From Deltaproteobacteria bacterium GWC2_42_11 (GTDB lineage: Bacteria > Desulfobacterota > GWC2-55-46 > UBA9637 > GWC2-42-11): a DNA stretch of 51,291 nt. A program made the translations under genes and the position numbers. Of the stretch, positions 162 to 44,719 are shown piece by piece. The notes beneath the pieces were generated by a model. That model searched no databases. It had not been told where the DNA came from and was given only the letters and a program-made list of their open reading frames with translations. Location: contig MGPS01000004.1 of the NCBI GenBank assembly GCA_001797495.1, forward strand, positions 1-51,291, given 5' to 3'. Positions within the stretch are counted from its first letter, which is position 1. Each line of letters starts with the position of its first letter.

Positions 162-1895
162 TCACTTGAGCGCACCCTTTACCTTTTCCAAAAGTTCATC
201 TCTCTTGCACAAAAATGGTGTTGTTTCCTTTCTTAACTTTATCTCAACCATTCCATTTTCAAGATTCTTGCTGCCTATTGTGAGCCTTATCGGCACACCT
301 ATTAAATCAGCATCTTTGAATTTCATGCCAGCCCTTTCATCCCGGTCGTCCATTAAAACACTAATGCCTGCTGTCTCAAGTTCATTATAAATGCCCTCTG
401 CCGCATCCATTACGGTTCTGTCATTCACATTAACAGGCACAATATGGACATGAAAAGGCGCAAGGGGAAAGGGCCAGATTATGCCGTCTTTGTCATGGTT
501 TTGTTCAATTGAGGCGGCGGCAGTCCTTCCGATGCCGATGCCGTAACATCCCATTATAAAAGGTCTCTCCTTGCCGTTCTCATCAAGGAATGCTGCATTC
601 ATTGACTCGCTGTATTTTGCGCCGAGTTTAAATATATGCCCAACTTCAATCCCTCTCATAATCTCAAGTGTGCCATCGCATCTTGGACAATTGTCCCCTG
701 AAACCACATTTCTTAAATCTGCAAATGTCTCTACCTTGAAATCCCTGTCAATATTCACATTTATAAAATGCGCATCCTTCTCATTAGCGCCTGTTACTGC
801 ATTTTTAATACCATGAATGCTGTAGTCTGCAATGATTTTGCATTTCAGTCCTACAGGTCCTGCAAAGCCAGAAGGAGCATTTGTTATATCCCTTACAGTT
901 TTATCATCCGCCAGTTTAACCCAGTCTGCATCAACTGCTCCCTGATTAAAAATTTCAGGGACATGCTTTTTGAGTTTTGTCTCATTTAATTCATAATCAC
1001 CCCTTAATAGAACTGCAAAACTTCCGATACTACTATCATAAATCAAAGTCTTTACAAGGAGTTGCGGATTAACCTTAAGAAATTTACTCACCTCTTCAAC
1101 TGACTTCATATGCGGCGTAGAAACCTTTGTTAGAGGTTTTTCCCCTGACACCTGACACCTGACACCTGACACCTGTCTTCTTGCTTCTGCCTTTTCAATA
1201 TTCGCCGCATAATTGCATTTATTGCAGCTTGCAATAGCATCTTCGCCTGTTTCTGCAAGAACCATAAACTCGTGCGAGAAACTCCCGCCAATCTGCCCTG
1301 TGTCTGCCTCAACTGCTTTGAATTTAAGCCCGCACCTTTCAAATATCCTCGTATATGTCTCATACATATTCTTATATTCTCTTTCAGCGCATTCTTCTGT
1401 TGCGTGAAATGAATATGCATCCTTCATTATAAATTCCCTGCCGCGCATAAGTCCAAAACGCGGTCTAATCTCATCCCTGAATTTTGTCTGGATTTGATAA
1501 AAGTTTAAAGGGAGTTGTCTGTAAGAGCGGACATCTCGCCTCACCATATCTGTTATGACCTCTTCATGCGTTGGACCCAAACAAAAATCCCTGTCATGCC
1601 TGTCCTTTAGTCTTAAAAGTTCCCTGCCGTAAACATCCCACCGTTTACTCTCCTGCCATAGTTCGGATGGAATGACCATTGGCATTAGGACTTCCTGTGC
1701 CCCTGCCCTGTTCATCTCTTCACGCACAATATTTTCCACCTTTTTTATGACCCGCAGTCCAAGAGGCAGAAAATTATAAATCCCGGATGCAACCTTTCTT
1801 ATCATGCCAGCCCTGAGCATCAACTGGTGGCTTATGACCTCTGCATCCTTTGGCGCCTCTTTAATTGTTGGAACAAGCATCTTTGTAAAACGCAT
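162..1895 (-). CDS. proS: Proline--tRNA ligase (with INS editing domain)
   Basis: LGPTHEE, FRDEIRPRFGLMRGREF, GIEVGHIFKLG and MGCYGIG motifs. Start placed at ATG 1895 (MRFTKM) after GGAG. Confidence 0.98.
   Translation of the reverse strand: MRFTKMLVPTIKEAPKDAEVISHQLMLRAGMIRKVASGIYNFLPLGLRVIKKVENIVREEMNRAGAQEVLMPMVIPSELWQESKRWDVYGRELLRLKDRHDRDFCLGPTHEEVITDMVRRDVRSYRQLPLNFYQIQTKFRDEIRPRFGLMRGREFIMKDAYSFHATEECAEREYKNMYETYTRIFERCGLKFKAVEADTGQIGGSFSHEFMVLAETGEDAIASCNKCNYAANIEKAEARRQVSGVRCQVSGEKPLTKVSTPHMKSVEEVSKFLKVNPQLLVKTLIYDSSIGSFAVLLRGDYELNETKLKKHVPEIFNQGAVDADWVKLADDKTVRDITNAPSGFAGPVGLKCKIIADYSIHGIKNAVTGANEKDAHFINVNIDRDFKVETFADLRNVVSGDNCPRCDGTLEIMRGIEVGHIFKLGAKYSESMNAAFLDENGKERPFIMGCYGIGIGRTAAASIEQNHDKDGIIWPFPLAPFHVHIVPVNVNDRTVMDAAEGIYNELETAGISVLMDDRDERAGMKFKDADLIGVPIRLTIGSKNLENGMVEIKLRKETTPFLCKRDELLEKVKGALK
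939..966. repeat. 7-9-7 palindrome inserted in frame in proS
   Basis: TCCCTGA-TTAAAAATT-TCAGGGA-CATGC, encoding HVPEIFNQG. Related copy in leuS at 43709. Confidence 0.7.
1144..1192. repeat. Heptamer tandem array in proS
   Basis: (CCTGACA)x4 perfect at 1144-1171 plus three degenerate units; encodes ARRQVSGVRCQVS. Confidence 0.95.
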
Positions 1896-1905
1896 AGAAT
1901 CTCCT

Positions 1906-2961
1906 TTACCCTGCAATCCTTTCTACCTCTTTTATAACGGTTTCAATAATTTTATCTTCTTTAACCTTTTTTACAGCCTTGCCTTTGATATACAGCATGC
2001 CAGCCCCATCACCCCCTGCTATACCAATGTCTGATTCTATTGCCTCTCCCGGACCATTAACAACGCAGCCCATAACAGCCACATTTATCGGCTTTGTTAT
2101 ATGCGACAATCTCTTTTCTATTTCTGTGGCAAGTTTTATCGCATCGATTTTGATTCTGCCGCATGTCGGGCAGGAGATAATATTAACCCCTCTCTCCCTT
2201 AATTTCAGAGACTTTAAGATCTCCCAACCTACCCGCACCTCTTCCACAGGGTCGCCTGTTAAAGACACACGAAGCGTATCGCCAAGCCCTTCTGACAGGA
2301 GGATTCCAAGCCCGACAGCGGATTTTATAGAGCCTGAAAATATAGTCCCAGCCTCTGTTATGCCTATATGGAACGGATAATCCACCTTTTTTGCAAGGAG
2401 CCTGTATGCCTCTATCGTCTTCCATATATCAGATGCTTTCAGCGAAACCTTTATATCAAAAAAATCGAGTTCCTCAAGTATGCGGATATGCCGCAAGGCG
2501 CTCTCAACCATACCTCCTGAAGTTGGATGACCATGTTTTTCTAAAATATCCTTTTCAAGAGAACCTGCATTTATGCCTATTCGTATAGGTATTCGTCTTT
2601 CCTTTGCAGCCTTGACAACCTCTTTAATCCGTTTTTTATCTCCAATATTTCCGGGATTTAATCGCAAGCCGTCAACACCCTTTTCAATTGCCTTTAATGC
2701 AAGTCTATAATCAAAATGTATGTCAGCGATTAGAGGTATTTTTATCCTTTTTTTTATCTTATCCAGAACATTTGCTGCGTCCTGATTTAACACAGCAACC
2801 CTTACAATCTCGCACCCTGATTTTTCCAGCGCCTTGATTTGCCGGACAGTCTCATTCACATCAAGGGTGTCTGTATTTGTCATGGACTGGACAGAAACAG
2901 GCGCATCTCCTCCCACCTTTACATTGCCGATTGTTATCTGCCTTGTCTTGCGTCTTCTCAT
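1906..2961 (-). CDS. ispG: (E)-4-hydroxy-3-methylbut-2-enyl-diphosphate synthase
   Basis: VQSMTNT, ADIHFD, RLNPGN, SCPTCGR and [10 protein letters not shown] motifs. Confidence 0.98.
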
Positions 2962-21435: not shown

Positions 21436-21524
21436 GGAGAGGTGGCCGAGCGGTTGAAGGCGGCGGTCTTGAAAACCGTTGTGGTGATGAGCCACCGGGG
21501 GTTCGAATCCCTCCCTCTCCGCCA
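21436..21524 (+). tRNA. tRNA-Ser(TGA)
   Basis: GGAGAGG acceptor stem, CT-TGA-AA anticodon loop, long variable arm, GGTTCGAATCC, encoded CCA. Confidence 0.97.
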
Positions 21525-22839: not shown

Positions 22840-22931
<92 letters not shown>

Positions 22932-32497: not shown

Positions 32498-32574
<77 letters not shown>

Positions 32575-42060: not shown

Positions 42061-44562
42061 TTACTCCACCACTAGATTTAGTATCTTATCAGGAACATAT
42101 ACTACCTTTTTGATTTTCTTATCTTTCAGCCACTCCTTTATCTTTTCACCTTTAAAAGCAATATCTTCAGCCTGTTTCTGGCTTGAGCCGGCAGGGATAT
42201 TCAGACGGTTTCGTATCTTGCCATTTATCTGGATAACAAGGATTACCTCATTTTTTATAAGTGCGTCTTCATTGTAAGACGGCCACAGTGTATTTGCAAG
42301 CAGTTCTTTATTCCCCATTTTCTGCCAGAGTTCTTCTGATATATGTGGTGCAAAGGGTGAAAGGAGGATGACAAGGGTTCCAACTGCCTCCGTGAATAGT
42401 TCAGACTTTTTATCCTCGTACCTGTAAAGGAAGTTAAGATACTCCATAAGCGCTGCGATTGCTGTATTGAAATGAAACCTTTCAATATCCTCTGTAACCT
42501 TTTTAATAGTCCTGTTCATCTCCTGGTTGAGTTGAGGAGTTTGTGAGTTGAGGAGTGATGGAGTTATGTCTTTACTCTTCAACTCTTCAACTCCAGAACT
42601 CTTAGACTCTTCTGCCAGCCTCCACACCCTGTTCAGAAACCTGTACGAACCTTCAACACCTTCATCGCTCCATTCCAGATCTTTTTCAGGCGGTGCAGCA
42701 AAAAGGGAAAATAGCCTTGCCGTATCAGCGCCGTATTTATTTATCAAATCATCAGGGTCAACTACATTCCCCTTGGACTTGCTCATCTTTGCACCATCTT
42801 TTATAACCATGCCTTGAGTCAAAAGGTTTGTGAAAGGTTCATCAATACTGGTAAGTCCAGTGTCCCTTATAACCTTTGTAAAAAATCTTGAGTACAGGAG
42901 GTGAAGCACTGCATGTTCAATGCCCCCTATATACTGGTCAACAGGCATCCAGTAGCCTGCTTCATCTTTATCAAAAGGAAGTGTATCGCCGGCTGGAGAG
43001 GTATACTTCAGGAAATACCACGATGAGTCAACAAATGTATCCATTGTATCTGTTTCACGTTTTGCTGAATTACTCCCGCACCGCGGGCATCTTGTTTGTA
43101 TGAACTCGGGAGACTGTGCCAGCGGTGAACTCCCTGCACCTGTAAACTTCACATCTTCAGGGAGTATGACAGGAAGTTTTTCGTAAGGGACAGGCACTAT
43201 CCCGCATGAATCGCAGTATATAATCGGTATTGGGCATCCCCAGTATCTCTGCCTTGATATGCCCCAGTCCTTTAATTTATAAGATATAGATTTTTTGCCG
43301 ATGCCTTTTTCTTCAAGGTGTTTTACTATTGCATCCATTGCATCTCTGTTGTTTATGCCGCTGAACTGTCCTGAATTTACGAGAACCCCTTCATCCACAT
43401 AAGCCTCTGTTATTGTATCTTCATTTAACTTTATGTCAGGCGGTTGTATGACAATTTTAACCGGCAGGTTGTATTTTTTTGCAAACTCAAAATCACGCTG
43501 GTCATGTGCAGGCACAGCCATCACAACGCCTGTGCCGTATTCCATGAGCACGAAGTTGGCGATGTATATAGGTATCTTCGTATTTGTTAAGGGGTTGATG
43601 CAGTATGAACCAGTGAAGACACCTTCCTTTTCAAGGAGAGCCTCTGTTCTTGCACTCCTGTCCTGTTTTTTTATCTTTTCAAAAAACCTCCTGATTTCTG
43701 ACTCCTTACCCCTGATAGAAGCGTTCAGGGGCAGGCCCCTGACCTCTATTAGTTTTTCCACCATTGGATTTTCAGGCGCTATAGACATGAATGTCGTGCC
43801 GAAAAGGGTGTCAGGCCTTGTCGTAAATATCTTTAACCTTTCATTTGAGCCTTCAACAGGGAAATCTACTTCGGCGCCTATACTCCTGCCTATCCAGTTC
43901 CTCTGCATTGTAACAACCCGTTCAGGCCAGCCATTAAGTTTATCTAAATCTGTGAGGAGTTCCTCTGCATACGCGGTAATCTTCAAAAACCACTGGTTGA
44001 GGTTCCTTTTTTCTACAGTGCTGTCACACCTCCAGCAGAGCCCTTCGATGACCTGCTCATTTGCAAGGACAGTCTCGCACTTCGGACACCAGTTCACATA
44101 AGATTCTTTTTTATATGCCAGCCTCTTTTCGTACATCTTTAAGAAAAACCACTGGTTCCATTTATAATAATCAGGTGTGCAGGTAGCAATCTCCCGTGTC
44201 CAGTCGTATGAGAGCCCCATCTGTTTTAATTGGGTCTTCATATAAGATATATTTTCCCTTGTCCATTTTGCAGGGTGTGTGCCGTGCTGGATTGCCGCGT
44301 TTTCAGCAGGCATGCCAAATGCGTCCCAACCCATTGGGTGGAGGACATTTAAACCCTTCATTTTCAGAAAACGGGCTGTCACATCACCTATTGAGTAATT
44401 CCTGACATGCCCCATGTGTATCTTTCCGGACGGATATGGGAACATCTCAAGCAGATAATATTTCTTCTTGTTTATGTCCTTTTTTACCTCAAAGACCCTT
44501 TTTTCTTCCCAGATAGTCTGCCATTTCTTCTCAATAATATGCGGTTCGTATCTATCTGACAT
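42061..44562 (-). CDS. leuS: Leucine--tRNA ligase
   Basis: HMGH, TTRPDT (CP1 editing domain), [13 protein letters not shown]. Start ATG 44562 after AGGAGG. Confidence 0.99.
42529..42613. repeat. Inverted octamer array in frame in leuS
   Basis: 5x GAGT-N4, a 5-bp spacer, then 5x ACTC-N4. Confidence 0.92.
43688..43748. repeat. Heptamer array with nested 7-9-7 palindrome in leuS CP1
   Basis: CTGATTT CTGACTC ... CCCCTGA-TAGAAGCGT-TCAGGGG-CAGGC (43709-43736) ... CTGACCT. Confidence 0.75.
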
Positions 44563-44719
44563 TAAATTGCCTCCTTTAATTCCATGACTTTTACCATATG
44601 CCACAGCAGGTTATCAAGAAAATTTGAAAATTTGAAAGGATTGCAATGATTGACAAGAAAGGGAAAATGGTTAATAATAAGTAGTACTCTGCAAATCATA
44701 TTTTATGGAGGTAATTCTT

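Follow-up and report, generated by a model that had tools for sequence, protein, structure and literature searches.

Two aminoacyl-tRNA synthetase genes in a 51,291-nt stretch of the genome of Deltaproteobacteria bacterium GWC2_42_11 (contig MGPS01000004.1; the window) carry almost the same short palindrome in the region that encodes the editing domain. This raises the question of how one DNA motif came to be translated within two different enzymes, prolyl-tRNA synthetase (ProRS, proS) and leucyl-tRNA synthetase (LeuRS, leuS). We analysed the window together with the rest of the genome, a 1.75-Mb draft in 73 contigs (G000), and with relatives including two sister genera (G001 and G002). The results indicate that both sites are probably copies of a non-coding, mobile, hairpin-forming dispersed repeat of 27 nt that is translated in place.

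The original prediction, made from the letters of the window, had described two palindromes of the form 7-9-7 at positions 939-966 and 43709-43736, and both were seen exactly as given (TCCCTGA-TTAAAAATT-TCAGGGA-CATGC in proS and CCCCTGA-TAGAAGCGT-TCAGGGG-CAGGC in leuS; Table 1). Each unit comprises a 7-bp stem, whose two arms enclose a 9-nt loop, and a 4-nt CARG tail, 27 nt in total. Translation of the two open reading frames (ORFs) bore out that the units have the same orientation relative to the gene and are read in different frames, the proS unit as (H)VPEIFNQG(A). The expected position in the editing domains agreed with Pfam as well. The proS site lies inside the tRNA_edit domain (PF04073, residues 269-391 of the 586-aa frame), and the leuS site inside PF13603, corresponding to CP1, about 25 residues after the TTRPDT motif. 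Translation of proS probably starts at the ATG at position 1895, which gives a protein of 577 aa with the insert at residues 311-319, in the INS editing domain. Each of the two genes is the sole strong match of its kind in G000. Within the window, CCCTGA-N9-TCAGGG with at most one mismatch occurs twice (0.10 expected), a number reached in none of 100 shuffles; as the pattern was picked post hoc, the genome-wide comparison of loop lengths weighs more. The window holds six perfect 7-9-7 hairpins, and the only GC-rich ones are the proS and leuS copies.

Table 1 Positions of the hairpin units, their host genes and the tRNA genes in the window.
Feature	Position	Strand	Description
27-nt hairpin unit in proS	939..965	+	antisense to gene; T + CCCTGA + 9-nt loop TTAAAAATT + TCAGGG + A + tail CATG
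27-nt hairpin unit in leuS	43709..43735	+	antisense to gene; C + CCCTGA + loop TAGAAGCGT + TCAGGG + G + tail CAGG
Heptamer-cassette edge, CCCCTGAC	43736..43746	+	third arm copy (heptamer GTCAGGG on gene strand), then CTC, extra GAG codon
proS, prolyl-tRNA synthetase, intact	162..1916	-	Pfam PF00587, PF04073, PF03129
leuS, leucyl-tRNA synthetase, intact	42061..44604	-	Pfam PF13603, residues 237-433
tRNA gene (Rfam)	21436..21521		
tRNA gene (Rfam)	22840..22928		
tRNA gene (Rfam)	32501..32574		

The two copies belong to a repeat family that is spread over the genome. Perfect CCCTGA-N9-TCAGGG palindromes occur 15 times in G000 with a loop of 9 nt, compared with 0-3 times for every other loop of 3-20 nt. 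When related arms were included, 52 perfect copies with two 6-nt arms and a 9-nt loop were found (CCCTGC 23, CCCTGA 15, CCCCGA 11, CCCTGT 2 and CCTTGA 1), compared with just 3-13 for the same arm classes at loops of 5-8 and 10-13 nt. The arms covary across these five types, and in copies searched as CCCTGM-N9-KCAGGG, with M and K left free, the closing pair is complementary in 38 of 39 cases. Read in one orientation, the consensus is Y CCCTG[C/A] TTAAAAyCT [G/T]CAGGG R CARG followed by YTT, and 45 of the 52 copies score at least 7/9 for its loop and tail. Seven copies below this score (C9:7655, C53:13, C18:23485, C70:54954, C59:5598, C26:20248 and C33:5922, given as contig and position) are doubtful members and may not belong to the family. 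The loop-and-tail signature alone retrieved 26 copies with 7/7 stem pairs, 12 with 6/7 (1-3 in controls) and 22 with 5/7 (6-18 in controls). About 11 or a dozen decayed copies with one stem mismatch thus exist in addition. The count of coding against other copies that had been proposed as a check thus revealed a family that is real and larger than anticipated, with 34 of the 52 perfect copies in Pfam-supported genes; instead of only two copies with no insertion at either site, there are 52 copies and insertions at both.

That these are insertions became apparent from the comparison with relatives, where the anticipated 9-10 additional amino acids were recovered in both enzymes. ProRS contains 9 extra residues that are missing in 19 of 19 relatives, and LeuRS 9-10 that are missing in 18 of 18 alignable relatives, one fragment not covering the site having been left out. 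Likewise, the LeuRS of T. thermophilus (1h3n) is exactly 10 residues shorter at the insert, and the P. aeruginosa-type ProRS structure 5ucm (E 9e-184) shows a gap there. On the DNA level, 12 host sites of G000 were compared with G001 and G002, and 10 of them could be resolved; two are ambiguous (C48:11862 and a murC-like gene, C6:19337), their flanks having diverged or holding other cassettes. Eight sites showed a gap of 27 nt in the relatives, namely proS, alaS, aspS, folK, purH, a nadD-like gene, an mtnA-like gene and a FAD_binding_2 gene. The mtnA-like and alaS sites, which have well-conserved flanks, yielded exact unit boundaries and no target-site duplication. In hom, the gap amounts to 54 nt, as one unit sits inside the loop of another, just after TTAA; taking out the inner 27 nt gives back the 9-nt outer loop. 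A second nested pair was found at C52:3192.

The gap in leuS measures 30 nt against both G001 and G002 and is made up of the 27-nt unit and one separate GAG codon. Hence, of the size of about 27-30 bp originally assumed, 27 nt holds for the family unit, and 30 nt describes only the leuS gap. Across the order, the CP1 loop of LeuRS is encoded by four tandem GTCARRA heptamers (VKSQESEV..; orthologues L022 in G001, L024 in G005 and L025 in G007), and in other families of the class it has an unrelated sequence of the same length. The unit of G000 stands after the first heptamer, and the additional arm copy next to it (Table 1) accounts for what had been described as a 3-prime tail. As to proS, the insertion is also present, with no difference, in contigs from two other samples (X4, spanning 651-1173, and X10, spanning 793-1068). 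Matches of contigs X4 and X9 start only at position 966 and run rightward from there, and they are too diverged to fix the boundary. No RNA run containing the stretch was found.

Copies of the repeat are numerous in each of the 13 genomes searched from the order, and in the rest of the class and phylum their number is close to background. CCCTGM-N9-KCAGGG occurs 39 times in G000, 25 and 63 times in two genomes of the same taxonomic family and 19-83 times in each of ten other genomes of the order. The corresponding numbers for 18 genomes of other families in the class are 0-9, with 0-3 for a backwards control. Among 201 genomes sampled evenly across the phylum, G000 had 17 occurrences of the oriented pattern and G003 had 5, and none of the other 199 had more than one. 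Individual sites turn over within this range: of the ten that were resolved, nine have no unit in the sister genera (in both, or in the sole genus compared), and the mtnA-like site is filled in G002 by an identical 27-mer and empty in G001. Furthermore, G007 carries an independent copy elsewhere in leuS, read as GVRGLPPQALS in the frame of the leuS copy in the window, which G004 and G005 lack. At this C-terminal spot, after FLNRVWRL, the LeuRS of G003 (L027) has about 28 extra residues (..ESESQRANPPLPVAMLRSNGSPASFAKG..), so that the spot of G003 and G007 looks like another length-tolerant hot spot.

A large part of the copies is located in genes, where they would be translated. Of the 52 copies, 39 fall in stop-free frames of at least 100 aa, which make up 38 distinct ORFs. 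Pfam supports 33 of these ORFs, including alaS, aspS, purH, folK and hom, and they contain 34 copies; the other 18 copies are outside such ORFs. Twelve copies fall within the envelope of a Pfam domain (proS, leuS, alaS, the OB fold of aspS, purH, folK, the mtnA-like gene, a Mur ligase, the nadD-like gene, a GT9 glycosyltransferase, a C26 peptidase and the FAD_binding_2 protein). The remaining genic copies are situated in linkers or near termini, and a few N-terminal ones may be upstream of the true start codon. Three of the six frames of the unit contain a stop in 0-1 of the 52 units, compared with 19-42 for the other three, and 32 of the 34 genic copies use one of the three nearly stop-free frames; frame use is thus filtered. 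Relative to coding sequence, copies of the family are placed almost at random: 28 of 38 (74%) are in stop-free frames of 150 aa or more, the share for random 21-nt windows being 88.5%. In G000, three other palindrome families are found mostly outside long frames (2/19, 3/13 and 5/21). Relative to the host gene, 24 copies are antisense and 12 sense. A possible replication-strand bias could not be read from GC skew, which follows the coding strand in this genome, 29 of 36 host genes being on the G-rich strand.

The inserts are predicted to form low-confidence surface loops in the editing domains of both enzymes. In the AlphaFold2 (AF2) model of ProRS, which has an overall predicted local distance difference test score (pLDDT) of 86, the block 311-320 reaches 64 and its neighbours 88 and 77. 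In the model of LeuRS residues 225-445, the sole internal segment with a pLDDT below 50 (65-71) falls within the insert (64-73), which would be located between helices 57-63 and 71-74. Together with the residue gaps in relatives, these dips are in line with the earlier proposal that the palindrome creates new peptide loops.

We propose the following explanation for these findings. The 27-nt unit would move by being cut or copied and then pasted precisely, with no duplication of the target site, and would in this way have spread through the genomes of an order of uncultured Thermodesulfobacteriota from groundwater (metagenome-assembled genomes, MAGs, named 'Deltaproteobacteria'). Insertion into a permissive loop of a gene would leave the gene unbroken, because the unit equals nine codons and in three out of six frames hardly ever contains a stop, and the unit would be translated as about nine extra residues. 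The hairpin and its asymmetric tail may serve as the recognition signal for an enzyme that acts in trans on single-stranded DNA, most plausibly an HUH/Y1 (histidine-hydrophobic-histidine motif, single catalytic tyrosine) transposase resembling those of IS200 or the REP-associated tyrosine transposases (RAYTs; REP, repetitive extragenic palindrome). This enzyme would either be missing from the draft G000 or have been lost. The mobile palindrome suggested by the original prediction, similar to REPs or to Rickettsia palindromic elements (RPEs), is therefore supported by the family, the exact gaps and the empty sister sites.

Several observations weigh against this explanation. The tail in proS and aspS resembles sequence in the empty site of G002, and the boundary is uncertain by 3-4 nt; for proS, an alternative placement at 936-962 fits the G002 flank better, and 939-965 fits the family unit as known from the clean sites. 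The mtnA-like copy is identical in 27 of 27 positions between G000 and G002, with flanks that differ at 61 of 416 (14.7%; P about 0.014). This identity could mean constraint, homogenisation or repeated insertion and not neutral junk. The three open frames are used unevenly (19:5:8). Presence/absence polymorphism was absent from four metagenome runs, in which no contig lacked the 27 nt, although contigs are a data type that drops rare variants. Finally, no mobilising enzyme was identified. PF01797 (Y1/RAYT) has no match in G000, a draft genome that can lose such genes. All 12 other genomes of the order contain Y1 genes, but so do 12 of the 18 genomes from outside the order, where the family is missing. 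Of the 26 Y1 loci taken from relatives (97 kb), not one has copies of the family on its flanks.

The idea of a RAYT gene bordered by copies, which had accompanied the initial description, hence found no counterpart in G000 or at the relatives' Y1 loci, and a RAYT/REPtron was rejected as partner; the link to RAYT is one of analogy. No match to IS110 (PF01548) was obtained in G000, nor to Y2 (PF04986), for which the search gave no match in any control genome either and says little. In G009, an IS200-like Y1 gene (E 4e-31; L210, G009:C99, 1433 and 1949) has hairpins of the form CCCTGCGC-CAAGA-GCGCAGGG on its two flanks, which are in direct orientation. They share only the outer CCCTG/CAGGG stem with the family and differ in loop and inner stem. 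Single copies of this hairpin occur in G013, G018 and G027, and also in genomes without the family. Another candidate partner, the sole DUF559 (PF04480) gene of G000 (C3:45483-45800; L245 1440-1980), was dismissed, as it is bracketed by a different hairpin. One and the same composite repeat, made up of a CCCCTCT..AGAGGGG hairpin and then GGGGTGTGT, is found on either side of the gene, which gives the whole the appearance of a small mobile unit; the hairpin is similar to a CCTCTC-N9-GAGAGG family with 15 copies. An HUH/Y1 enzyme that recognises the folded single strand in trans may tentatively be considered for the family, on the analogy of IS200/IS605 and REP/RAYT.

A more far-reaching version, which appears rather doubtful to us, would see a hairpin transposon family adapted to genes. 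Here, the nine-codon length and the three stop-free frames would have been selected, insertion would be near-random in a gene-dense 1.75-Mb genome, and the family would constitute a steady source of 9-residue surface loops in essential enzymes, including four aminoacyl-tRNA synthetases, moved by a single-strand-DNA enzyme other than a classical REP-flanked RAYT. G000 contains a second, unrelated 27-nt palindrome family, TGGGGACAG-ATTTCAAAT-CTGTCCCCA, with a 9-bp stem, a 9-nt loop and 9 copies at loop 9 (for example at C3:15863, C14:12321 and C29:20250/21515/22378). Its GGGACAG-core palindrome has 11 copies with loops of 3-15 nt, 9 of which are in stop-free frames of at least 150 aa. This second family hints that the length itself is selected.

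Instead of a mobile element, the hairpin might be a functional nucleic-acid signal under selection, such as a site on DNA or RNA that is bound or processed by a host protein, with the peptides as a by-product. The nearly invariable complementarity of the closing pair, the identity of the G000 and G002 copies next to diverged flanks and the persistence of the family across the whole order would fit such a role, as would the predicted fold of the proS hairpin (-12 kcal/mol, z -2.8). However, the emptiness of nine of ten resolved sites in sister genera implies that no site is required, and the placement is near random relative to coding sequence, in unrelated genes and in either orientation. Roughly 11 copies have a stem mismatch, no Rfam family matches the hairpins at the gathering score (only the three tRNA genes of the window were matched), and the leuS hairpin is no more stable than shuffled sequence (z -1.2); the third arm copy beside it is able to pair with the first arm of the unit in an alternative fold. 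We thus regard a functional signal as unlikely. Quite improbable, in our view, is a local origin by template switching or slippage in heptamer cassettes at length-tolerant hot spots, homogenised by gene conversion and involving no transposition. The leuS site seems to speak for it, being a tandem GTCARRA cassette in relatives, with a hairpin arm that equals the heptamer GTCAGGG. Relatives also carry different cassettes at or beside the sites in the murC-like gene and purH, where the G001 gene (L239) has a copy of the TGGGGACAG family exactly in place of the CCCTGC unit of G000, and a few intergenic copies sit within heptamer arrays. Yet only 1 of 52 copies adjoins a strict period-7 tract, for which reason heptamer context was rejected as a general property. 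Six empty sites (proS, alaS, folK, mtnA-like, nadD-like and aspS) are free of heptamers, the 27-nt unit with its asymmetric tail recurs at more than 50 unrelated places, and the nested units are exact.

Selection might also act at the protein level, on a peptide cassette whose xVPA(D/E)xKQG loop would serve as a tag or interaction motif. Indeed, 19 of the 34 genic copies are in the one frame that gives such peptides. Against this, the other 15, including leuS, are read in other frames as unrelated peptides, 18 of the 52 copies lie outside Pfam-supported ORFs, and the peptides are predicted to be disordered loops, which makes a selected cassette very improbable. Chance resemblance or an assembly artefact deserved attention as long as only two copies had been noticed, given that short palindromes are as common as the six perfect ones in the window illustrate. 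This explanation, to which we assign a negligible probability, is already refuted by the genome-wide enrichment at loop 9 only, by the family in 12 other independently assembled genomes and by the insertion in contigs from other samples. A mobile, translated repeat therefore remains our preferred explanation for the two sites.

Other repeats were observed in G000 and its relatives besides those mentioned above. Two further palindromes, AAATAGCGA-N9-TCGCTATTT (19-20 copies in G000) and CCCAAAAAT-N8-ATTTTTGGG (21-30 copies), are mostly outside long open frames. Six CCCCGA-N9-TCGGGG hairpins (C7:21051, C13:45330, C15:576, C33:12366, C65:2279 and C70:54954) are each embedded in a longer repeat, conserved over about 80 nt (..GCGCTCAACATACT..AAAGTATGCC..), which resembles a larger element of its own or an RNA. 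Three repeats of about 160-210 nt on contig C48 (L077, 5432-5592, 8149-8332 and 19049-19260) match dozens of G002 loci and several G001 loci at 80-99% identity and are families resembling MITEs (miniature transposable elements with inverted repeats).

If the two sites are read as mobile repeats, selfish DNA of just 27 bases can colonise essential single-copy genes without destroying them. The enzymes concerned would include ProRS and LeuRS, in their editing domains, as well as AlaRS and AspRS, and colonisation would have been repeated and independent across a bacterial order. This explains in concrete terms how short lineage-specific loops, commonly dismissed as alignment 'indels', can arise, and it cautions those who annotate genomes or build phylogenies that loops of this kind can be mobile DNA. 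Moreover, one hairpin with four bases defines a very small substrate with which the enzyme that moves tag-less REP-like elements can be sought.

How does this family relate to known systems? Full-text searches of the literature turned up neither the family nor any other in-frame element of 27 nt. REPs within genes have been catalogued by Di Nocera et al. 2013 (PMC3733652), who describe some copies as lying inside known genes and being read in frame. The same paper gives the GTAG/CGTC tag as part of the definition of REPs, and its conclusions do not settle what enzyme mobilises REPs lacking an associated transposase. With REPs and REPINs (REP doublets forming hairpins), as portrayed there, the family shares a short (20-40 bp), GC-rich stem-loop followed by a short tail, tens of copies, a lineage-specific abundance and some genic copies in frame. 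It differs from them in that it lacks a GTAG or CGTC tag and has Y before the stem and R-CARG after it, and that no RAYT gene flanked by copies was seen in G000 or among the 26 Y1 loci of relatives. In addition, 34 of 52 copies are genic and REPs are mostly extragenic, and the units are single and have a fixed length of 27 nt, the two doublets being nested and not head-to-head dimers. RPEs (Ogata et al. 2000) are presented in PMC10969869 and PMC3733652 as palindromic selfish DNA in frame within many unrelated housekeeping genes, translated in a way compatible with function, about 100-150 bp in size and with a conserved peptide of some 30-50 residues. In-frame insertion into unrelated functional genes is common to both; the present unit, however, has 27 nt (9 residues), is read in three frames and belongs to a free-living groundwater lineage. 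Small dispersed repeats (SDRs) of Nostocaceae are mentioned briefly in PMC3116915 and PMC2884548.

MITEs are set apart by their length of 70-300 bp, compared with 27 nt here, and by the lack of a target-site duplication at our two clean sites. Hairpin-defined ends, strand asymmetry and insertion without target duplication are reminiscent of IS200/IS605, although the hairpin that flanks the IS200-like gene of G009 has another loop and inner stem, and G000 is without a Y1 gene. SDR4-6 of Nostocaceae are reportedly inverted-repeat units of 21-27 nt with precise insertion and nesting, and are said to be associated with tandem heptamer repeats and to have no known transposase. So described, they match the family in size, exact insertion, nesting (the 54-nt gap in hom, C52:3192) and occasional heptamer context, and differ in phylum, probably in sequence, and in that the copies here are mostly genic. 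In-frame REPs and RPEs being already known, the family is a variant of intragenic REP, RPE or SDR-like elements that is new to the literature searched.

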